The notes: generated by a model from the sequence alone, not told the origin. 64,000 bases of DNA from an uncultured Acidobacteriota bacterium (GCA_963741955.1 CAVUKB010000004.1:192001-256000); one strand, 5' to 3'. Counted from the first letter of the stretch, positions 9,251-20,287 are shown. Translations and numbers: made by a program.

Positions 9251-9438
9251 CCCGGACTCTGGCCCGGATACCGTCTCCGGAGCGCGGTCGAAATGTCGCG
9301 TCCGGTTCAAGGGTCGGTTATCATCTCTGAACCTGTGATCGGGGCAAAGCGTGACCTTTATCACTGCCGTATCGATCGCCATCGCTCACGATACAGGTGC
9401 AGGAAGTGGCGCGGCCGCCACCTCACCCCTCAATTCGA

Positions 9439-11208
9439 ATGAATACGACCTCGCGAAGAACGTTCCCCTGGATTCTTGCCGGGATCTACCTCGGGGTTTC
9501 GGCGGTCTGGATCATCGCATCGGATTCGGTTCTCCACGCGATGGTCGGAAACGCCGCCGAGGTCCAGCACTGGCAGACCGCGAAAGGACTCTTCTTCATC
9601 GCGGGGACGACCGCGATGCTGTTTGCGATCGTGCGTCGATACGACGAGAGTCTCGAGGCGCGTTCGCGCGAGCTTCGCGGGTCACGGGAGCAGTTCCGGA
9701 GTCTCTTCGACACGGCGATGGACGCGATCATCACCATCGACGAAAACCAGAACGTGGTGATGGCGAACGAGGCGGCCCGGGAGATGTTTCGCTGCGGGGA
9801 CGAGGATCTGGCCGGGAAGTCGATCGATCTCCTCATCCCGACCGCGGCAAGAGAGCGGCATCGGGCGATGGTCACCGAGTTCGGAGAGTCGGGGCGGACC
9901 GATCGGTCGCTCCGACACAAGCCGGTTCTGACCGGACGCCGCCTTGACGGAACCGAGTTCCCGATGGAAGCGAGCATCTCCCGCTATACCGTCGAGGGAA
10001 ACATCTATTTCACCGCGATCGTGCGGGACGTCGCGGATCGGGTGATACGGGACGAGGAACGTCGCCGGCTCCTCGAGCGGACCGAGCTGCTGATGGATTC
10101 GACGAGCGACGGGTTCGTCCTGGTGGACGAAGATGGGCGGCTCCTTCTCCTGAATCGGAGCGGTGAGGCGATGCTGGGAAGTGCCGCCGAGGAGCTGATC
10201 GGAACGAACATCCGCGACGCGGTGCGCTCCGTCGAGTCGCAGGACGACCATGACAAGGCGCTCTCGGTCGTCTTCGCCGGGATCCCGATCGAGCACCGGA
10301 AGCTGGAGCTGACCCGGCGCGACGGGACGACGCTTCCGATCGAGCTCTCGGCCACGCCTCTGAAGCAGGACGGTGAGATGCGCGGAGCGGCCGTCTCGAT
10401 GCGGGATCTGACGCTGGTGCACCAGCTGGAGAGCCGGCTGGAAGAAGTGCGGCGCGTGGAGAGTCTCGGAAAACTCACCGCGGTCGTGAGCCACGAGATG
10501 AAGAACATCCTGATGAGCATTCAGGCGTTCCTCGATGTGATCCGACGCGTGGATGGGATGGGAGAGAAGGTACACACCGCGATCAGCGGAATCTCGCGCG
10601 CGATCGAGCGTGGAAGGACCATTACCAGCGAGGTTCTACGTTTCTCGAAGGCGCAGTCGCCGGATCCGGAAGTGATCGACGCAGCTCGTTTTCTCTCCAC
10701 GATCGAGCCCGGGCTTCGGAGTCTCCTCACGCCGAAGGTCGAGCTGGTGATGGACATCGCCACGGAGAGAGTGGGACGGTTCAGCGCGGATACCGGTCAG
10801 CTCGAACAGGTCTTCGTGAACCTGGTGGCGAACGCGCGGGATGCGATGCCCCAGGGGGGGCGTCTGAAGATCACCGCCGACGTACCACGGACCGAGATCC
10901 CGGGCCTCGGCGGACGCCACGGGATCGAACGCTACATCCATTTCGCGGTCTCGGACACGGGGATCGGGATGTCCGCCGAAGTGCGGGATCACGCGCTCGA
11001 GCCGATGTTCACCACCAAGCGCGCAGGGACCGGCCTGGGACTGGCGGTCGCGCAGCGCATCGTCAGCTCACACGGTGGTTCCCTCCTGATCGACAGCCGT
11101 CTCGGGATCGGGACCACCATCCACATTCTTCTTCCGCGGGAAGTAGAGCCGAACCGCGGCGCCTGGATGCAGCAGGGACCGGATCTCGAGTCGTCGGCGC
11201 CCTGCTGA
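9439..11208 (+). CDS. Membrane PAS-PAS sensor histidine kinase
   Basis: Two N-terminal TMs, two PAS domains, H-box SHEMKN, N-box NLVANARDAM, DTGIG, FTTK, GTGLGL. Confidence 0.92.
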   Translation: MNTTSRRTFPWILAGIYLGVSAVWIIASDSVLHAMVGNAAEVQHWQTAKGLFFIAGTTAMLFAIVRRYDESLEARSRELRGSREQFRSLFDTAMDAIITIDENQNVVMANEAAREMFRCGDEDLAGKSIDLLIPTAARERHRAMVTEFGESGRTDRSLRHKPVLTGRRLDGTEFPMEASISRYTVEGNIYFTAIVRDVADRVIRDEERRRLLERTELLMDSTSDGFVLVDEDGRLLLLNRSGEAMLGSAAEELIGTNIRDAVRSVESQDDHDKALSVVFAGIPIEHRKLELTRRDGTTLPIELSATPLKQDGEMRGAAVSMRDLTLVHQLESRLEEVRRVESLGKLTAVVSHEMKNILMSIQAFLDVIRRVDGMGEKVHTAISGISRAIERGRTITSEVLRFSKAQSPDPEVIDAARFLSTIEPGLRSLLTPKVELVMDIATERVGRFSADTGQLEQVFVNLVANARDAMPQGGRLKITADVPRTEIPGLGGRHGIERYIHFAVSDTGIGMSAEVRDHALEPMFTTKRAGTGLGLAVAQRIVSSHGGSLLIDSRLGIGTTIHILLPREVEPNRGAWMQQGPDLESSAPC

Positions 11209-11358: not shown

Positions 11359-11910
11359 GTGAATAACCTGCAGGAGTCCGTGCTGCGTCTGTGGCCGGAG
11401 ATCGAGTGGATCAGTGAGTCCGATCTCCGGGAGAAAGTGCTGCGAACGTGGGTTCGCGCATTCGAGCTGAGCCCCCTCGAGCCGTCCGATCTCGAGCGGA
11501 TTCCCTTCACTCTTCTCGTGCCGGATTGCCCGGTGACGTTCATGGAGCACAAGAGGTGCGTGGTCCACATCGCACGCCGGGCCGCCGAGTCGATGCAGGA
11601 GTTCATGGGAAACAGCCTGCCGATCGACCTCGACGTGGTGATTGCGGGCGCGATTCTCGCCGATGTCGGGAAGGTGCTGGAGTACGAGATGAAGGACGGG
11701 AAATCACGGCAGAGCGAGCGCGGACGGCTCCTCCGTCACCCGTTCACCGGCGTGGCCGTCGCGATGGAGTGCGGGGTTCCCGACCGGGTCTGTCACATCA
11801 TCGCTGCGCATGCCGACGAAGGGAATCTTGTCAAGCGCTCGACGGAAGCGATCATCGTGCATCACGCCGACTTCATGAGTTATCTCCCGTTCAAGAACCT
11901 CGTTCACTGA
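11359..11910 (+). CDS. HD-superfamily (HDIG-like) protein with degenerate HD motif
   Basis: EH..V, GAILADVGK (AD in place of HD), RHPFTG, IIAAH, HHAD. Confidence 0.8.
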   Translation: MNNLQESVLRLWPEIEWISESDLREKVLRTWVRAFELSPLEPSDLERIPFTLLVPDCPVTFMEHKRCVVHIARRAAESMQEFMGNSLPIDLDVVIAGAILADVGKVLEYEMKDGKSRQSERGRLLRHPFTGVAVAMECGVPDRVCHIIAAHADEGNLVKRSTEAIIVHHADFMSYLPFKNLVH

Positions 11911-11923
11911 GAGGACCCAGGTC

Positions 11924-13315
11924 ATGTCAACCGTCATGGATCGAGTCACCGCAACGATGTCGCAGTGGGCCGCCGGGGTCGAATACGACGACCTTTCGCC
12001 CGAAGCAGTCCAGCAGGCGAAACGTTTCCTGTTCGATTCGCTCGGCTGTGCGATGGGAGGCTATCAGCAGCACGACGTGCGGATCATGCTCGAGGTGATC
12101 GAGGAGACTGCGGGCGCGGGACGCTCGACTCTCTTCGGCACCGGCCGGCGGATCGATGCGTCCTCCGCCGCGCTGGCGAACTCCCTGATGGTCCGGGTGA
12201 TGGACTACAACGACATCTACTGGCAGCAGGACCCGTCGCATCCTTCGGACCTGATCCCTGCCGCCGTGGCCTGTGCCGAGCGCTCGGGGGCGAACGGACG
12301 TGAGCTGCTGGTCGGCATCGCCATCGCCTACGAGATGGAGATGCGTCTGTGCGAAGCGGCGTTCCCCGGAATTCGAGAGCGCGGATGGCATCATGCGACG
12401 CTCACCGCCTTCGCGTCGCCCGTGGTCGCCGGCCGGATGCTTCGTCTCACACCTGCGCAGATCCAGCATGCGATCGGAATCTCCGGCAGCCGGCACGCGA
12501 CGCTCGGAGCCGTCACGGCGGGCAAGCTGACCATGATGAAGAACACCGTCGATCCGATGGCGACGCAGAGCGGGGTCTTCGCCGCGCTCCTCGCGGAGAA
12601 GGGTTACACCGGGCCGGAGCACGTGATCGACGGGAAGGAAGGATTGGCAGAAGTCTTCGGTCCCGAATGGAAGCTCGGCGTTCTCACCGAAGGTCTCGGC
12701 GCATCATGGCGGATCACCCGCTGCGGGATGAAGGCTTTCCCCACCGAGGCGCTGACGCACGCTCCGATCTCCGCGGTGCTGGACATCGTCCGGGATCATG
12801 ACCTGACCCCCGAAAAGGTGGTGAAGGTGGAGATCCGCTCGCTGGAGCGCGCTGCCGACATCCTCGCGGACCCTTCCAAGTACGAACCGCATTCGAAGGA
12901 GACCGCGGACCATTCGCTCCCGTACGTGATCGCGGCGGCGATCGTCGACCGGCAGGTGACCCCGCGCCAGTTCACGAACGAACGGATCGAAGATCCGCAG
13001 GTCCGGGCTCAGTTGAAGAAGGTGGTGGTGGTCGCCGATCCGGAGATCGAAGCGGTCTTCCCCGCGCTGCAGCGAGTCATCGTCCGGGTGACCACGAGCG
13101 ACGGATCGGTGATCGAGCGGCAGCTCGACTATCCGAAGGGTGATCCGCGTAATCCGCTCACCGATGCCGAGATCGAGGAGAAGTTCGACGCGCTGGCGGA
13201 CGGGGTCCTCTCTCCGATGCGATCGGCGGAGCTGAAGAGCGCGATCCGCAATCTCGAGAATCTCGGCTCGGTATGCGAGTTGACCGGAAATCTGGTTTCA
13301 GAACCGAGGGACTGA
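11924..13315 (+). CDS. prpD: MmgE/PrpD family (2-methylcitrate dehydratase-like)
   Basis: DSLGCA, MDYND, SHPSD, GWHHAT, ETADHSLPY, YPKGDPRNP. Confidence 0.88.
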   Translation: MSTVMDRVTATMSQWAAGVEYDDLSPEAVQQAKRFLFDSLGCAMGGYQQHDVRIMLEVIEETAGAGRSTLFGTGRRIDASSAALANSLMVRVMDYNDIYWQQDPSHPSDLIPAAVACAERSGANGRELLVGIAIAYEMEMRLCEAAFPGIRERGWHHATLTAFASPVVAGRMLRLTPAQIQHAIGISGSRHATLGAVTAGKLTMMKNTVDPMATQSGVFAALLAEKGYTGPEHVIDGKEGLAEVFGPEWKLGVLTEGLGASWRITRCGMKAFPTEALTHAPISAVLDIVRDHDLTPEKVVKVEIRSLERAADILADPSKYEPHSKETADHSLPYVIAAAIVDRQVTPRQFTNERIEDPQVRAQLKKVVVVADPEIEAVFPALQRVIVRVTTSDGSVIERQLDYPKGDPRNPLTDAEIEEKFDALADGVLSPMRSAELKSAIRNLENLGSVCELTGNLVSEPRD

Positions 13316-15261
13316 TGGGACAGACAGTCGTCGAAAAGATCGCGCAGTCGCATCTCGCCGAGGGGCCTGATCGTCCGCTTCGCGCGGGCGATTTCGTTTC
13401 CATCCGACCCCGTCACATCCTCACTCACGACAATACCGCCGCAGTGATGAAGAAGTTCAGGACCCTCGGCGTCGACCGGGTCCACGACCCGCGGCAGCCG
13501 GTCTTCGCTCTCGATCACGACATCCAGAACACCTCGGAGGAGAACCTCTCCAAGTACCGTGCGATCGAGACGTTCGCGCGCGAGCAGGGGATCGATTTCT
13601 ACCCGGCAGGCACCGGGATCGGACATCAGATCGTGATCGAGCGGGGCTACGCCGTCCCCGGCTCGTTCGTCGTCGCGTCCGACTCGCACTCGAACATGTA
13701 CGGCGCGCTCGGCGCAGTCGGGACTCCGGTGGTGAGGACCGACGCCGCGGCGGTGTGGGCGACCGGAAGCTTCTGGTGGCAGATACCGCGGACTGTGCAG
13801 GTGGTACTGGACGGAAAGCTCGCCGAAGGAGTGACCGGGAAGGACGTGATCATCGCCCTCTGCGGTCTGATCGGCGATGAGGTTCTGAACGCAGCGATCG
13901 AGTTCACCGGACAAGGCGTGCAGTCGCTGACCGTCGAGGAGCGTCTGACCATCGCCAACATGAGCACCGAATGGGGCGTTCTGGTGGCGTGGTTTCCGCC
14001 GAGCGGGATGACGTTTCAGTTTCTGCGGCGCCAGCACGAACGGCTGGTGGAGGAGCAGACACGGGTCGCCTTTGCCGAAGACGATCTGCGACGATGGGAG
14101 GCGGATCCGATCGCACCCGATCCGGACGCGGTGTACGCAGCGCGCCTGGAGCTCGATCTTTCGACGGTGGTCAGGACGGTCGCAGGGCCGGACACGGTTC
14201 AGCTCACGCATTCTCTCGCCACGATCGCTCCGAAGCGGGTGAAGATCGACAAGGCGTATCTCCTCTCCTGCGTCAACTCGCGCCTGGAGGACCTGACCGC
14301 AGCGGCAGAGGTGCTTCGCGGAAAGAAGATCGCTGCCGGAGTGAAGTTCTACGTGGCGGCAGCGAGCCGTCAGGTTCAGCAGGAGGCGGAACGGACCGGA
14401 GTCTGGAACGTTCTGGTGGAGTCGGGAGCGACGCTCCTCCCTCCGTCGTGCGGACCGTGCATCGGGCTGGGAACGGGACTCCTCGAAGCGGGAGAGGTCG
14501 GGATCTCGGCGACGAACCGTAACTTCAAGGGGCGGATGGGATCCCGCGATGCGGCCTGCTATCTCGCCAGTCCGGCGGTGGTCGCGGCATCGGCGCTGGA
14601 GGGAGTGATCACCGCGCCGGGGACCGGATCCGGTGAAACGCGAGTCCGCTTCACCGTGCTGGAGATGCCGGCCGCCGCGCCCGAACTGGTCGACATCGTG
14701 CCGGGCTTTCCCGCCGAGGTTCGCGGGCGGATGCTCTTTCTGCCGTCCGACAATCTGAACACCGACGGCATCTACGGGAAAGACTACACTTACCGTGACG
14801 ACGTCACGCGCGAAGAGATGGCGCGTGTGGTGATGCAGAACTACGACCCGGAGTTCGCGCTTCGGGCTGGAGAAGGTGACGTGATCGTTGCCGGAGCGAA
14901 CTTCGGCACCGGATCGAGCCGCGAGCAGGCGGTCACTGCGCTGCAGGCGCGGGGGATCCGGATGGTGATCGCCACGAGCTTCTCTCAGACCTACCTGCGC
15001 AACGCATTCAACAACGGCTTCCTCTGTGTCGAATGTCCCGAGCTGGTGGCGGCGGCAAAACGCGATCTAACCGGATCGGTGACCGGTGCGAAGACGGTGA
15101 TCTCCGGAGACGTACTGGACATCGACTTCAGAAGCGGGTCGATCCGGTGGAGGGGCCAGGTCTTTCATTTTCAGGCTCTCGGTTCGGTTCCGCAATCACT
15201 GGTCGCGGCGGGTGGGATCGAGAACCTGGTGCGCAGCCGTTTCGCGGCGGCTGCGGTTTGA
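13315..15261 (+). CDS. Single-chain homoaconitase/aconitase-family hydratase, fungal Lys4/LysF-like
   Basis: THDN, LDHDIQN, GIGHQ, ASDSHSNMYG, [4Fe-4S] ligands SCVNSR and SCGPCIG, fused swivel domain NFGTGSSREQA; TGATG coupling to prpD. Confidence 0.88.
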   Translation: MGQTVVEKIAQSHLAEGPDRPLRAGDFVSIRPRHILTHDNTAAVMKKFRTLGVDRVHDPRQPVFALDHDIQNTSEENLSKYRAIETFAREQGIDFYPAGTGIGHQIVIERGYAVPGSFVVASDSHSNMYGALGAVGTPVVRTDAAAVWATGSFWWQIPRTVQVVLDGKLAEGVTGKDVIIALCGLIGDEVLNAAIEFTGQGVQSLTVEERLTIANMSTEWGVLVAWFPPSGMTFQFLRRQHERLVEEQTRVAFAEDDLRRWEADPIAPDPDAVYAARLELDLSTVVRTVAGPDTVQLTHSLATIAPKRVKIDKAYLLSCVNSRLEDLTAAAEVLRGKKIAAGVKFYVAAASRQVQQEAERTGVWNVLVESGATLLPPSCGPCIGLGTGLLEAGEVGISATNRNFKGRMGSRDAACYLASPAVVAASALEGVITAPGTGSGETRVRFTVLEMPAAAPELVDIVPGFPAEVRGRMLFLPSDNLNTDGIYGKDYTYRDDVTREEMARVVMQNYDPEFALRAGEGDVIVAGANFGTGSSREQAVTALQARGIRMVIATSFSQTYLRNAFNNGFLCVECPELVAAAKRDLTGSVTGAKTVISGDVLDIDFRSGSIRWRGQVFHFQALGSVPQSLVAAGGIENLVRSRFAAAAV

Positions 15262-15383
15262 GGAAGTGCTGCCTCCGGAACCGGAGGGATGGCTGAAAGA
15301 AAGTCGCAGAGGAGTCGAGCGGCGACAAGGCATGACGACGGCTGGACCGCCAGCCGGATGCCGCGCTCCCGGAAGGAGAAGAG

Positions 15384-16592
15384 ATGGCGCGCTACGAAGT
15401 TGTGACGATGCCCGGAGACGGGATTGGGAAGGTGGTTCTGCCGGAAGCGATCCGGGTCCTGGAGAGCGTCGGATTCGACGCGAAGTACATTCACGGGGAC
15501 ATCGGATGGGATTTCTGGTGCTCCGAAGGAAACGCGCTTCCGGACCGCACCATCGCCCTCCTCGAAAAGTACAGGCTGGGACTGTTCGGCGCGATCACTT
15601 CGAAGCCGAAGAAGGAAGCTGATGCCGAGCTCGATCCGTCGCTGAAGGGGAAGGGATACGTCTACTACAGCCCGATCGTGACCATGCGGCAGCGCTTCAA
15701 CCTCGATCTCTGCGTGCGCCCCTGCCGTTCGTTTCCCGGCAATCCATTGAACTTCGTCCGCAAGTCTCCCACCGGGAAAGTGGAGGAGCCGAAGGTCGAT
15801 GCGGTGATCTTCCGGCAGAACACCGAAGGAAGCTACACCGGAGTGGAGTGGACGAATCCTCCCGCTCAGGTGCGTGATGCTCTCGCGACGCACGCGCGGT
15901 TCCGCGCATTCGACGCGGTCCCGGGTGAAGATCTCGCGGTCTCGACCCGGATCGTCACCCGCGGGGCAGTGCAGCGGATCATCCGCGCCGCGTTCGAGTA
16001 CGCGAAGAAGTTCGGCTACCGGTCCGTCACGGTTGCCGAAAAGCCGAACGTCCTTCGCGAGACCTCCGGGATGTTCGAAGAGGAAGCGAAGAAGATCAAG
16101 GCGGAGTTCCCCGGGGTCCAGCTCTGGTCGACGAACATCGACGCGCTGATGATGTGGTTGACGAAGAACCCGGAAGAGTACGGAGTGATCGTGGCGGAGA
16201 ACCTGTTCGGCGACATCATCTCCGATGCGTTCGCCGGCCTGGTCGGAGGGCTCGGTTTCGCCTGTTCCGGAAACGTCGGCGACGAGGTGGCGGTATTCGA
16301 GCCGACCCACGGCTCCGCGCCGAAGTACGAGAAGCTCGATCCTCCGATCGTCAACCCGATCGCGATGATTCTCTCTGCGGCCATGCTTCTCGATCACGTC
16401 GGAGAGACCGAGAAGGGCGACGCGGTGCGCGCAGCGGTGGCGGCCGTCGTCGCGGAGGGGAAAGTCCGCACCTACGACATGATGAGAATCGCCGGCGGTG
16501 CCGACGTCTTCTCGAAAGGCGCCGCGACGACCTCGCAGGTGACCGACGCGATCATCGCGAAGATCGGAAGCAACGTGATGTCGCCGGCGTGA
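15384..16592 (+). CDS. Isocitrate/homoisocitrate/isopropylmalate dehydrogenase family
   Basis: PGDGIG, SPIVTMRQ, FRQNTEGSY, KPNV, NLFGDIISD, EPTHGSAPKY. Confidence 0.9.
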   Translation: MARYEVVTMPGDGIGKVVLPEAIRVLESVGFDAKYIHGDIGWDFWCSEGNALPDRTIALLEKYRLGLFGAITSKPKKEADAELDPSLKGKGYVYYSPIVTMRQRFNLDLCVRPCRSFPGNPLNFVRKSPTGKVEEPKVDAVIFRQNTEGSYTGVEWTNPPAQVRDALATHARFRAFDAVPGEDLAVSTRIVTRGAVQRIIRAAFEYAKKFGYRSVTVAEKPNVLRETSGMFEEEAKKIKAEFPGVQLWSTNIDALMMWLTKNPEEYGVIVAENLFGDIISDAFAGLVGGLGFACSGNVGDEVAVFEPTHGSAPKYEKLDPPIVNPIAMILSAAMLLDHVGETEKGDAVRAAVAAVVAEGKVRTYDMMRIAGGADVFSKGAATTSQVTDAIIAKIGSNVMSPA

Positions 16593-16613
16593 GCCGCGCG
16601 ACGGGAGGACGAG

Positions 16614-17846
16614 ATGACGGAACCAGTCGCAGACGTCCGGTACGGTGAGGCCGGGCGCACCGGGGACGACATACGATCCGATCTGCTGGTGCGGATCGAG
16701 CCGCGAACCGGCGGGGGGATCGAGATCGAGCTGGCCTCGAAGGTCGGTGCCTACTACGGCGAAGCGATCCAGCGACAGTGCCGCGAAGTGCTGCGTGATC
16801 TCGGAGTCACCGATGCAGTCCTCCGCATCGACGACCGCGGTGCGCTGCCGTTCGTCATCGCGGCACGGGTGGAGGCGGCGGCGCGCCGCGCCCTCCTCTC
16901 GGACCTCCGCTCGCTTCCGGTTCGAATCGGCATCTCACCCCCTTCGAAGAGCGACCGGCTCCGGCGCTCGCGGCTCTATCTGCCGGGCAATGAGCCGAAG
17001 TACTTCGTCAGTGCTGCGTTGCACGGACCGGACGCCGTGATTCTCGACCTCGAGGATTCGGTCCACCCCAACGAAAAAGATGCGGCGCGAATCGTGGTGC
17101 GCAACGCCCTCCGGGCGGTCGACTTCGGAAGCTGCGAGCGGATGGTGCGCATCAACCCCTTCCCACTCGGGCTCGAGGATCTGGACGAAGTGATTCCGGA
17201 GATGCCCGACGTGATCCTGATCCCGAAGGTGGAGCGGGCGGACGAAGTGATCGAGATCGAAAGGCGGATCGACGAGATTCTCCTCGCCCGCGACCTCGAC
17301 CGGCCGATCTGGCTGATGCCGATCCTCGAATCGGCCCGAGGGATCGAGAACGCATACGAGATCGCCTCGGCGACCTCTCGCGTGGTGGCGCTCACCATCG
17401 GCCTCGAAGACTACACGGCGGACCTCGGCGTCCCGAAGACGAAAGAAGGTCGCGAGTCGGAGTACGCGCGGATGCGGCTGGTCAACGCAGCGCGGGCGGC
17501 CGGAATCCAGGCGATCGACTCGGTGTGGGGTGACGTCGGCGATACGGAAGGGCTGCGCGAATGGGCGCTTCGCTCGCGCGCTCTCGGTTTCACCGGAATG
17601 GGATGTGTGCATCCGCTGCAGGTGGAAGTGATCCACGAGGCGTTTGCACCGACTGCCGAAGAGATCGCGAAGGCAGAGAGAATCGTGAAGGCGTTCCGGG
17701 AGGCGCAGAGGAGGGGACTCGGAGTGGTGAGTCTCGGTTCGAAGATGATCGATCCACCGGTGGTGCTACGGGCGGTGAGACTGGTCGAGCAGGCCTCCGC
17801 GATGGGATTGATCTCCGAGCAGGCAGTGGAAGAGGGTCAGGTATGA
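16614..17846 (+). CDS. citE: Fused citrate lyase ACP (CitD) and citryl-CoA/ACP lyase (CitE)
   Basis: N-terminal ~95 aa CitD-like (IELASKV..YG, IDDRGALPFVIAARV); C-terminal RRSRLYLPG, LDLEDSV, ILES, GLEDY. Confidence 0.88.
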   Translation: MTEPVADVRYGEAGRTGDDIRSDLLVRIEPRTGGGIEIELASKVGAYYGEAIQRQCREVLRDLGVTDAVLRIDDRGALPFVIAARVEAAARRALLSDLRSLPVRIGISPPSKSDRLRRSRLYLPGNEPKYFVSAALHGPDAVILDLEDSVHPNEKDAARIVVRNALRAVDFGSCERMVRINPFPLGLEDLDEVIPEMPDVILIPKVERADEVIEIERRIDEILLARDLDRPIWLMPILESARGIENAYEIASATSRVVALTIGLEDYTADLGVPKTKEGRESEYARMRLVNAARAAGIQAIDSVWGDVGDTEGLREWALRSRALGFTGMGCVHPLQVEVIHEAFAPTAEEIAKAERIVKAFREAQRRGLGVVSLGSKMIDPPVVLRAVRLVEQASAMGLISEQAVEEGQV

Positions 17847-19411
17847 CGATCGAGAGTCTGGACGTCGAATTGGTGCGCAACGCCGCGGGACGGCAGGTTC
17901 CCGGAGTGGTGAACGGAAATGCGCAGGTGCCGTTCGAGGGCGTGGACGTTCACCGGCCATCGGGAAGGAAGGCCGCACCGCCGGTTCGCAGCGCGGCGGA
18001 CTATCTGCGGGATGGGGTGAAGCTCGTGCCCGATCTGGCGACGGCCCTCGCCGAATGCGGTCTGCGCGATGGAATGGTCATCTCGACGCATCATCATCTT
18101 CGGGACGGCGATCGGGTCGCCGTGGCGGCGCTCGAAGCAGCGGCGTCGCTCGGAGTGCGGGACCTGATGTGGTTTCCGAGTGCCTCGTTCCCCAGTCAGG
18201 CGAGCGTGATCGACCTGATGGAATCGGGAGTGGTCCACCACATCGAGGGGAGCATGAACGGGCCGCTCGGCGACTACTGCACGCAGGGAAGGATGCGCGG
18301 GCTGGGAGTGCTTCGCTCGCACGGCGGACGGTGGCAGGCGATCCAGGACGGCGAAGTGCACATCGACATCGCGGTGATCGCGGCGCCGAGTGCGGATCCG
18401 TTCGGTAACGCGAACGGATCTCACGGCCCGTCGGCCTGCGGATCGCTCGGGTTCGCGCTCGCCGATTCGACGTATGCGGACAAGGTGATCGTGGTGACGG
18501 ACAACCTGGTGCCGTTCCCCTGCATCCCCTGGCAGATCCAGGGCAACAATGTGGACAAAGTGGTGGTGGTCGACTCGATCGGAGATCCGGCGAAGATCGT
18601 CTCGGGGACGACCCAGATCACGCGTTCGCCCGACCGGCTGCGCATCGCGAAGCTGACTGCGTCCTTCATCCGCGAAGCCGGAATCATGAAGAACGGCTTC
18701 TCATTTCAGGCCGGGGCCGGCGGAATCTCACTCGCCTTCGTCAGCTATCTGCGCGAGATGATGAAGGACGCAGGGGTCAGGGCGCGATTCGTGCGCGGCG
18801 GTTCGACCAAGGTCCTGGTGGAGATGCTCGAGGAGGGATTGATGGACTACATCCTCGACGGGCAGACCTTCGATCTCGACGCGGTGCGATCGATCGCATC
18901 GAATCCGCGACACGTCGCGACCTCGCCCTTCACCTCCTACAACTTCCACGGGAAGGGAAACTTCGCCTCCATGATCGACGCGGTGGTCCTCGGCGCGACG
19001 GAGGTGGACACCTCGTTCAACGGGAACGTGGTGACGCATTCCGATGGACGGCTGCTGCACGGCATCGGCGGATGGCAGAATTGCCTGTACGCCGGCTGCA
19101 CGATTCTCGCGGTGCCGTCGTTCCGCGACCGGACTCCGGTGATCGTGGACGAGGTGACGACGCTGACCGGTCCCGGTGAGCTGATCGACGTGGTGGTGAC
19201 GGAGCGCGGAATCGCGATCAACCCCCGGCGGAAAGATCTGCTCGACGCGGTCGCGGGGTCAGGTCTCCCGATCCGGCCGATCGAGGCGCTGAAGGCGGAG
19301 ATCGAGAGCATCTGCGGAAGGCCGGAGAGGCCGAAGCGGACTGCCCGCCCGGCCGCGGTGGTGAAATGGGTGGACGGTACGGTACTGGATACGGTGTGGG
19401 AGCTGGAGTGA
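17843..19411 (+). CDS. citF: Citrate lyase alpha subunit / citrate CoA-transferase
   Basis: DGMVISTHHHLRDGD, RSHGGR, FQAGAGG, GATEVD..FNGNV, IDVVVTERGIAINP; ATGA overlap with citDE. Confidence 0.92.
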   Translation: MTIESLDVELVRNAAGRQVPGVVNGNAQVPFEGVDVHRPSGRKAAPPVRSAADYLRDGVKLVPDLATALAECGLRDGMVISTHHHLRDGDRVAVAALEAAASLGVRDLMWFPSASFPSQASVIDLMESGVVHHIEGSMNGPLGDYCTQGRMRGLGVLRSHGGRWQAIQDGEVHIDIAVIAAPSADPFGNANGSHGPSACGSLGFALADSTYADKVIVVTDNLVPFPCIPWQIQGNNVDKVVVVDSIGDPAKIVSGTTQITRSPDRLRIAKLTASFIREAGIMKNGFSFQAGAGGISLAFVSYLREMMKDAGVRARFVRGGSTKVLVEMLEEGLMDYILDGQTFDLDAVRSIASNPRHVATSPFTSYNFHGKGNFASMIDAVVLGATEVDTSFNGNVVTHSDGRLLHGIGGWQNCLYAGCTILAVPSFRDRTPVIVDEVTTLTGPGELIDVVVTERGIAINPRRKDLLDAVAGSGLPIRPIEALKAEIESICGRPERPKRTARPAAVVKWVDGTVLDTVWELE

Positions 19412-19594: not shown

Positions 19595-20134
19595 TCATCT
19601 TCTCTCTCGTAAGGCGTCCACCACCGCTTCGAAGCGCCCCTCGGCACAGAGCCCGCTCATGCCAGCCTCCTCCCAGACTCGGGTCGCGATCTGCGCCGGC
19701 GTCTCGACCGCGAGCGGCGGAGGCGTCGTCATTCGCTGACGGAGTGTCTCGAGAAGCTCCTCTTCCTCGCCGGGGGCGAAGGCGACCCGGCTCTCCATCT
19801 CGATCGCGTCCATGACTTCCGCGCGGGTGGCTGCGCGCGAGACGGGATAGATGTGGAGGTGGAGATGTGGCACCTGGAGGCCGAGCTTGAGGAGGATGGC
19901 GCGGTCGGCGCCGGTCACTGCGAGGAGCGCCTCCTCCACGCGTCTGAAGAAATGGACGAATTCGCCTGCCTGTTGCTCTGATAGAGAGGAGAGATTCTCG
20001 ACGTGCCTCTTCGCGACCACTACGGCGTGGCCACGGAGTGCGTGGTCGTCGCTGAGGAGGGCCAGGGCGACCGGGCTCTCGGCGAAGACCTCGGGGCGGT
20101 TGATGTCGTAGCCGCAGAAGTGACAGGCACTCAT
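19595..20134 (-). CDS. HIT family protein with short C-terminal extension
   Basis: CHFC zinc motif, histidine triad VPHLHLHIYP. Confidence 0.85.
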   Translation of the reverse strand: MSACHFCGYDINRPEVFAESPVALALLSDDHALRGHAVVVAKRHVENLSSLSEQQAGEFVHFFRRVEEALLAVTGADRAILLKLGLQVPHLHLHIYPVSRAATRAEVMDAIEMESRVAFAPGEEEELLETLRQRMTTPPPLAVETPAQIATRVWEEAGMSGLCAEGRFEAVVDALRERR

Positions 20135-20287
20135 TGATTCGGCTCCCGTGAACGGATCGTGAAAACGGTTGGGCCTCGCTTCGGGAGGCAGCTTCATTGT
20201 CGCACTGGCATGCGGAATGAAGAATATACGAATAGCCTTGCGGTGCGCGGCCGCACCCGGGGCGAGATCAAGATCCGTGAGGGAGCA

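Follow-up and report, generated by a model that had tools for sequence, protein, structure and literature searches.

This study concerns a gene for a CitD-CitE fusion protein (CitDE) in a 64,000-nucleotide stretch of DNA (the window) from an uncultured Acidobacteriota bacterium (GCA_963741955.1 CAVUKB010000004.1:192001-256000). Citrate lyase is the textbook example of dependence on a dedicated phosphoribosyl-dephospho-coenzyme A carrier and on three accessory genes. We found that CitDE has Arg at the position of the canonical attachment Ser of its carrier domain; judged by sequence, this Arg is the mark of a distinct and widespread lineage of CitD domains, referred to here as RSD-type. The accessory genes citC, citG, and citX are absent from the operon and from the whole source genome, which is 99.1% complete. 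Because an invariant Arg occupies the serine site and no genes were found to make, attach, or prime the cofactor, the CitDE complex probably uses free coenzyme A (CoA). The fusion is genuine and selectively maintained and, together with CitF, is predicted to form a citrate-lyase-like enzyme with acyl transferase and lyase activities. The CitDE system is a variant of the known citrate lyase system.

The CitDE gene and its carrier loop

The 410-residue product (plus stop) is encoded by a single open reading frame (ORF), with the sequence GGAGG at 16604-16608, 5 bases upstream of its ATG. The gene and its parts are as follows.

16614..17846, + strand: CitD-CitE fusion gene (domain matches to both families; AlphaFold2 model)
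16614..16898, + strand: CitD/MdcC-like carrier domain, residues 1-95 (PF06857; domain model; MdcC fold match)
16653..16682, + strand: conserved loop G14-x-x-G17-x-x-x-R21-S22-D23 (sequence, alignments, AlphaFold2 strands)
16899..16964, + strand: linker, residues 96-117 (least conserved stretch of CitDE)
16965..17843, + strand: CitE (citryl-thioester lyase) domain, residues 118-410 (PF03328, TIGR01588)

PF06857 matched CitDE residues 22-93 with 70.1 bits (E = 2e-19; cut-off 25.1), and the citD model TIGR01608 scored 67.1 bits, above its cut-off of 63.5. The alignments to these hidden Markov models (HMMs) began only at residue 22, corresponding to profile position 12 or 15. PF03328 matched residues 118-334 with 178.8 bits. 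The citE model TIGR01588 matched residues 115-398 with 271.1 bits, which is under its equivalog cut-off of 443.4 and still the score of the best family; the CitE domain is 37% identical to Escherichia coli CitE. Foldseek matches of the CitE part were malyl-CoA lyase, CLYBL, and CitE-like chains. Homologues are named in the databases as citrate lyase or citrate lyase acyl carrier protein. The protein database entry for the source genome (P0001) is a 291-amino-acid piece (window 16971-17843) that begins at residue 120 (RLYLPG...) and lacks the CitD domain; existing gene calls may therefore hide the fusion.

The structure of whole CitDE was predicted by AlphaFold2 with a predicted local distance difference test score (pLDDT) of 94.8 and a predicted template modeling score (pTM) of 0.92; the carrier domain modeled alone had a pLDDT of 90.6. 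The carrier loop (residues 15-23) is placed between strands 11-14 and 24-30. MdcC, the carrier of malonate decarboxylase, was the closest genuine fold match of the carrier domain (5vit_C; template modeling [TM] score 0.62/0.67, root-mean-square deviation [rmsd] 2.6 Å). MdcC ranked only 42nd by Foldseek E-value, yet had the best TM-score and rmsd; the top ranks by E-value, EF-G and ribosomal protein S9-like domains, had TM-scores of 0.4-0.5 and an rmsd of about 7 Å and were set aside. A PDB sequence search with the N-terminal 100 amino acids gave no match. The PDB profile search found MdcC only at E = 0.054; it also gave three matches of about 11 bits to the designed beta-trefoil "Symfoil" through an RSD-containing hairpin, which were taken as chance, boosted by repeats. 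No solved CitD structure was found in either search. By sequence and by fold, the domain belongs to the CitD family.

The carrier loop reads AGRTGDDIRSD (residues 13-23), with Arg21 encoded by CGA at 16674-16676, Ser22 by TCC at 16677-16679, and Asp23 by GAT at 16680-16682. Alignments by MAFFT and BLASTP with E. coli K-12 CitD, taken from its annotated citCDEFXG region (L003), were free of gaps across the loop and the next strand, and paired Gly17 with Gly10, Arg21 with Ser14, Ser22 with Gly15, and Asp23 with Asp16. Ser14 is the residue that we take to be the prosthetic-group attachment site of enterobacterial CitD; a statement to this effect was not found in the open literature searched. The canonical serine column (E-S-[SG]-D) is thus occupied by Arg in CitDE, as a first-pass annotation of the window had proposed, and a Ser follows one residue on. 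Canonical CitDs often have Ser at both positions (SSD). The domain profile aligned the position of Ser22 to MdcC residue 26, and extrapolation by one residue places MdcC Ser25 in the Arg column. According to the MdcC structure report (PMC5534430), Ser25 bears the prosthetic group and lies at the loop tip between two antiparallel strands.

Conservation and spread of the RSD-type CitD

Loop sequences were compared in three sets. The close set comprised the 119 best database homologues (394-429 amino acids, 66-74% identity to the query), and the related loci were 80 genomic loci with 10-kb flanks, 79 of which cover the N-terminus of CitDE. The distant set came from an exhaustive search with the 105-amino-acid domain, which gave 605 cluster representatives at E ≤ 1e-3; the best 150 were examined, and 140 of these cover the loop. 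Both domains were present in all 119 close homologues, whose named sources are Terriglobia, Thermoanaerobaculia, or Sulfotelmatobacter.

The loop was R-S-D in 118 of the close homologues and R-A-D in the remaining one; among the related loci it was RSD in 77 and GSD in 2. For the 140 representatives, the counts were 122 RSD and 2 canonical LESSD, the others being KSD (three), RGD (four), RAD, KND (two), RND, KED (two), PSD, QSD, and one garbled loop. The consensus reads AG-x-x-G-x-x-[VI]-R-S-D-[CLV]; G14, G17, R21, and D23 do not vary among 120 close sequences, and S22 is replaced in one of them. R or K stands at position 21 in 136 of the 140 representatives, including all 10 that lack the Ser (the RGD, RAD, KND, RND, and KED loops). 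Ser22, which lies on the loop one residue past the canonical site, is thus near-invariant, and intact variants without it exist: genome G184 (L133:5911-7225) has RAD in an intact CitDE ORF of 400-odd residues within a complete operon, and P0263, with an RGD loop and 384 amino acids, appears intact. Another Ser-less representative, P0139, appears frameshifted.

Over the 119 homologues, CitD residues 11-95 are 64% identical to the query, compared with 73% for CitE and 43% for the linker. The fusion was found in records from Acidobacteriota, Ignavibacteria, Methylomirabilis, Eisenbacteria, and Binatia; the Ignavibacteria loci have the RSD motif and 50-54% identity to the window protein. Some RSD-type CitDs stand alone. 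Within the window's own family (f1), none of the five other sampled genomes has a CitD domain, and the best homologue, found elsewhere, is 74% identical. This patchy distribution, despite an unremarkable base composition, suggests gain by transfer or repeated loss.

Absence of citC, citX, and citG

The source genome (5.44 Mb in 16 contigs) contains a single CitD domain, that of the fusion. Profile searches for CitG, CitX, and MdcG found no match in it, and tblastn with the E. coli proteins also found nothing. A lone weak CitC-family match was rejected because it is the pantetheine-phosphate adenylyltransferase CoaD. The first-pass annotation had noted that the three accessory genes are absent from the operon; their absence was found to extend to the whole genome and to every sampled carrier of an RSD-type CitD.

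The phylum was represented by an even sample of 251 genomes, many of them draft metagenome assemblies, and the search used a heuristic first-look filter. A CitD domain was present in 42 of these genomes. It was canonical in three (G139, G172, and G212), in which it aligned to HMM positions 2-83, had the motif AGT-x-Q-SSD (AGTMQSSD), and was encoded in a contiguous citC-citD-citE-citF-citX-citG cluster. CitX and CitC (E ≤ 1e-10) were each found in 3 of the 251 genomes, exactly the canonical ones, and CitG was found in 9, namely the 3 canonical genomes and 6 without CitD. The citC, citX, and citG genes of the canonical genomes, detected at E-values of 1e-25 to 1e-77, served as positive controls. 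None of the three genes was found in any of the 39 non-canonical carriers, the source genome included. The loops of the other 38 were RSD in 36 and RAD in 1, and 1 was cut by a contig end. In the phylum sample, the accessory genes track CitD type exactly.

Outside the phylum, in the Ignavibacteria class (around Rosettibacter primus), the domain was present in fused-size frames in 21 of 101 sampled genomes; neither citX nor citG was found in any of the 101, hence in none of the 21 carriers. Both genes were also missing from five further named genomes (0/5 each). Co-occurrence of CitG/MdcB, CitX/MdcG, and CitC, by which a holo-citrate lyase would be recognized, was not found for CitDE. Constant co-occurrence of citC, citG, and citX with the fusion had been named in the first-pass annotation as incompatible with its proposal, and the opposite was seen (0/39 phylum carriers).

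Strong CitG-family genes (237-247 bits) occur without CitD or CitX in genomes G006, G025, G038, G096, G132, and G214. On a related point, the Geobacter bemidjiensis genome paper, in discussing G. sulfurreducens, allows that a second use of the precursor is possible (PMC2996986).

Cofactor of the CitDE-CitF complex

The reading that we favor, and to which we attach about even credence, is that the CitDE-CitF complex runs on non-covalently held or free acyl-CoA. Because the genes that make (citG), attach (citX), and acetylate (citC) the prosthetic group are all missing from genomes of this lineage, the cofactor would be an ordinary CoA ester: acetyl-CoA and citryl-CoA, or the corresponding esters of a homologue of citrate, would act as a catalytic non-covalent cofactor, and the CitD domain would be retained as a fixed adaptor linking CitE and CitF. 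The invariant Arg in a Gly-rich loop is a plausible phosphate binder, and the Arg21/Ser22/Gly loop may grip a CoA-nucleotide phosphate at the place formerly taken by the covalent phosphodiester. The fusion, the motif and its conservation, the fold, the lack of accessory genes, and the operon are observed; that there is no covalent arm, that free CoA esters are used, and that the loop binds phosphate is inferred. Dimroth and Eggerer reportedly showed in 1975 that the alpha and beta subunits of citrate lyase, once isolated, can use acetyl-CoA and citryl-CoA. CoA-bound structures of the CitE relatives malyl-CoA lyase and CLYBL, which use free CoA esters, were among the structure matches. If the complex had a covalent arm, three missing functions (precursor synthesis, transfer, and acetyl priming) would each need a replacement of other origin.

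Several observations weigh against this reading. Ser22 is kept in 118 of the 119 close homologues, 36 of the 37 readable phylum loops, and 128 of the 138 non-canonical representatives, and such conservation, on an exposed loop matching that of MdcC, is the expected look of an attachment site shifted by one residue. The two GSD loops, which lack the Arg, are in intact genes at Acidobacteriaceae loci (L049 and L051). Ser-less variants are rare and come mostly from metagenome assemblies, so that some may reflect sequencing error or inactive alleles. A lack of homologues is also compatible with a loader of unrelated sequence encoded at another locus. Finally, free citryl-CoA is labile, a drawback for any diffusing intermediate that is not channeled.

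A bolder proposal, which we consider rather unlikely, is that this lineage has converted a carrier with a covalent swinging arm into one that holds CoA non-covalently. Arg21, at the very place once occupied by the serine with its phosphodiester, would clamp a CoA phosphate together with Ser22 and the Gly-rich loop, and the pantetheine arm would still shuttle between CitF and CitE without loading machinery. Loss of the tether would let acetyl-CoA leave, and another acyl-CoA (e.g., succinyl-CoA) could re-prime CitF. The outcome would be a route to acetyl-CoA independent of adenosine triphosphate (ATP), with citrate as its starting point or else a C7 homologue on which the PrpD-like, homoaconitase-type, and dehydrogenase enzymes of the operon act.

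Among the rival explanations, the one that survives best is that Ser22 is itself the attachment site, shifted by one residue, and bears a covalent thiol arm that is attached by some enzyme other than a CitX/MdcG relative; we regard it as possible, if somewhat doubtful. The arm could be phosphoribosyl-dephospho-CoA, supplied via non-homologous enzymes, or 4'-phosphopantetheine, supplied via a housekeeping transferase, and priming could be by acetyl-CoA rather than by CitC. The shift would be a small step, since many canonical CitDs are SSD, and both the near-invariance of Ser22 and the homology of its loop to that bearing MdcC Ser25 are in keeping with it; the intact Ser-less variants argue the other way, as does the R or K at position 21 in every Ser-less representative. 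Tight linkage of the domain to CitE and CitF is carrier-like, but the means of loading such a carrier are missing: citG, citX, mdcG, and citC from the source genome, the accessory genes from all 39 same-phylum carriers, and citX and citG from the 21 Ignavibacteria-class carriers and the five named genomes. No conserved candidate loader was found in the 80 loci, and the only conserved gene of unassigned role, which encodes an HD-domain protein, does not accompany CitDE and CitF everywhere (it is lacking at L070 and L072, for example). Complex prediction for CitDE with this HD protein scored 0.00 in both runs, a result that says nothing either way on action of the HD protein on the carrier. As for a housekeeping transferase, the CitD fold is unlike that of helical carriers, which are what phosphopantetheinyl transferases recognize. 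The caveat of the first-pass annotation that Ser22 could serve instead stands, given the near-invariance of this residue across the lineage, and is argued against somewhat by the rare intact variants that lack it.

It is very improbable that the CitD domain is a decaying relic without a role and that CitE, with or without CitF, alone matters. Loss of the canonical serine and absence of the loading genes would fit a relic, but the 64% identity of the domain over 119 homologues (compared with 73% for CitE), the invariance of G14, G17, R21, and D23 in 120 sequences, the maintenance of the fusion across the several groups listed above, and the confident predicted fold all speak against decay. The vestigial carrier of the first-pass annotation is rejected on these grounds, whereas the other half of that proposal, a complex working with free CoA thioesters, coincides with the reading that we favor. 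That canonical citC, citG, and citX are present and were missed through divergence, assembly gaps, or search filters is scarcely credible: most assemblies are metagenome drafts and the first-look filter is heuristic, but the same searches found all three genes in the three canonical genomes (E 1e-25 to 1e-77) and none in the 39 phylum carriers (or, for citX and citG, in the 21 Ignavibacteria-class carriers), the source genome is nearly complete, and the assemblies of several carriers consist of a single contig or of large contigs.

Comparison with known systems

The window shares with enterobacterial CitDEF (E. coli citCDEFXG) the three catalytic modules, which are encoded by adjacent, translationally coupled genes; its CitD passes the family HMMs, and CitF is 38% identical to the E. 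coli protein, a value close to the 37% of CitE. It differs in having CitD on the N-terminus of CitE, Arg in place of the attachment Ser with Ser at +1, and no citC, citX, or citG.

MdcC, the best fold match (PDB 5vit/5vj1), has its carrier serine loop between equivalent antiparallel strands, but is a separate subunit, unlike the fused CitD of the window. In the MdcC structure report, MdcB and MdcG are described as loading the carrier and MdcH as priming it (PMC5534430). No CitG/MdcB-family or MdcG homologue was found in the source genome; MdcH was not searched for.

The CitE-like lyases that act on free CoA esters (malyl-CoA lyase, CLYBL, citramalyl-CoA lyase/RipC, and Mycobacterium tuberculosis CitE) have the same TIM-barrel fold and 30-34% identity, and show that the lyase chemistry can proceed on free CoA esters. 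These enzymes stand alone, without CitD or CitF, and the window protein scored 271 bits as true CitE versus 171 bits as RipC. The citramalate lyase of Clostridium tetanomorphum, made up of transferase, lyase, and carrier parts, acts on a citrate analogue and was reported to have a covalent prosthetic group. It provides a precedent for CitDEF-like complexes on other substrates.

The fusion itself was already noted in 2012. In the available part of Liu et al. (2012; PMC3362086), Ignavibacterium album IALB_1147 is described as a CitE+CitD fusion adjoining CitF (IALB_1146) and is termed a citrate lyase that works independently of ATP, with a proposed role in citrate fermentation or in a reverse tricarboxylic acid (TCA) cycle of unconventional type; the window has the same fusion type next to CitF. 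The serine replacement, the missing citC/G/X, and the conserved neighbors are not mentioned in that part of the paper, and no mention of the fusion was found in the available part of the Melioribacter roseus paper. The literature search, with limited coverage of subscription journals, found no account of the replaced serine, of the absent accessory genes, or of the operon.

These results identify a large environmental lineage (Acidobacteriota, Ignavibacteria, and others) that keeps the carrier domain without its loading machinery and with a basic residue at the attachment site. If the cofactor is indeed free or non-covalently held CoA, the lineage would be an example of the simplification of a covalent carrier system, and CitDE plus CitF would offer a minimal two-gene citrate-lyase-like module for engineering.

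The operon and its genomic context

CitDE is the fifth of six genes in a cluster, the other members of which are as follows. Counts refer to the 80 related loci.

11359..11910, + strand: HDIG/HD-domain protein, first gene of the cluster (PF01966, 36.8 bits; TIGR00277, 34.8 bits; 68/80 loci)
11924..13315, + strand: MmgE/PrpD-family protein (PF03972, PF19305; 74/80 loci)
13315..15261, + strand: fused large+small subunit aconitase-family hydratase of LYS4 (homoaconitase) type (TIGR00139, 703 bits, cut-off 529.9; 75/80 loci)
15384..16592, + strand: beta-decarboxylating dehydrogenase of the isocitrate/homoisocitrate/isopropylmalate dehydrogenase family (PF00180, 262 bits; 72/80 loci)
17843..19411, + strand: CitF, alpha subunit, acyl transferase (PF04223, 436 bits; adjoins CitDE in 79/80 loci)

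CitDE is present in all 80 loci. The ATG of CitF at 17843 overlaps the CitDE stop codon (ATGA). CitF scored 484.9 bits against TIGR01584 (cut-off 501.45), and its PDB matches were 2hj0 (368 bits) and 1xr4. No gene beyond these six was conserved in the 80 loci with their 10-kb flanks, and no substitute loader was found nearby. The Ignavibacteria loci have the same cluster genes in another order; at the Methylomirabilis locus, CitDE and CitF are the only ones present.

The PrpD-like protein is nearer to IDS epimerase and to IRG1/cis-aconitate decarboxylase than to 2-methylcitrate dehydratase (PDB matches 2hp3, 154 bits; 7bra, 128 bits; cis-aconitate decarboxylase, about 104 bits; PrpD, 58 bits). 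The dehydrogenase had Thermus homoisocitrate dehydrogenase as its best PDB match (185 bits) and, in the alignment, has Ile at the position of Asn115 of E. coli Icd. The HD protein falls only in unnamed HDIG clusters of the protein atlas, and its usual HD dyad reads AD (ILADVGK) in 22 of 22 aligned homologues; given this dyad, it may be something other than an ordinary phosphohydrolase.

GltA (two copies), AcnA, Icd, and LeuBCD are encoded elsewhere in the source genome. The cluster was rejected as the TCA cycle of the organism, because the two GltA copies, AcnA, and Icd lie outside it, and as the front end of aminoadipate lysine synthesis, because lysW is absent and lysA is present. With separate TCA and leucine genes and a LysA route to lysine elsewhere, the six-gene operon (11359-19411), conserved across phyla, is therefore an accessory tricarboxylate pathway. 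Because the partners are of homoaconitase and homoisocitrate dehydrogenase type and GltA, AcnA, and Icd are separate, the substrate of the lyase may be a citrate homologue. The E. coli cluster, by comparison, has a citrate transporter and regulators as partners where the window has the PrpD-like, homoaconitase-type, dehydrogenase, and HD genes. Conservation of the operon points to a tricarboxylate pathway that differs from the citrate lyase annotation and from the reverse-TCA proposal for I. album.

Promoter and terminator scans at the locus were uninformative. A gene for a HIT-family protein (19595-20197, - strand) converges on the end of the operon; none of the 80 related loci contains it, and it was rejected as a candidate loader for that reason. 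A gene for a PAS-containing sensor histidine kinase (9397-11208, + strand) lies immediately upstream of the operon. Ten of the 80 loci contain weak relatives of this kinase (27-32% identity), with no constant position or strand, and the kinase may be a local regulator.

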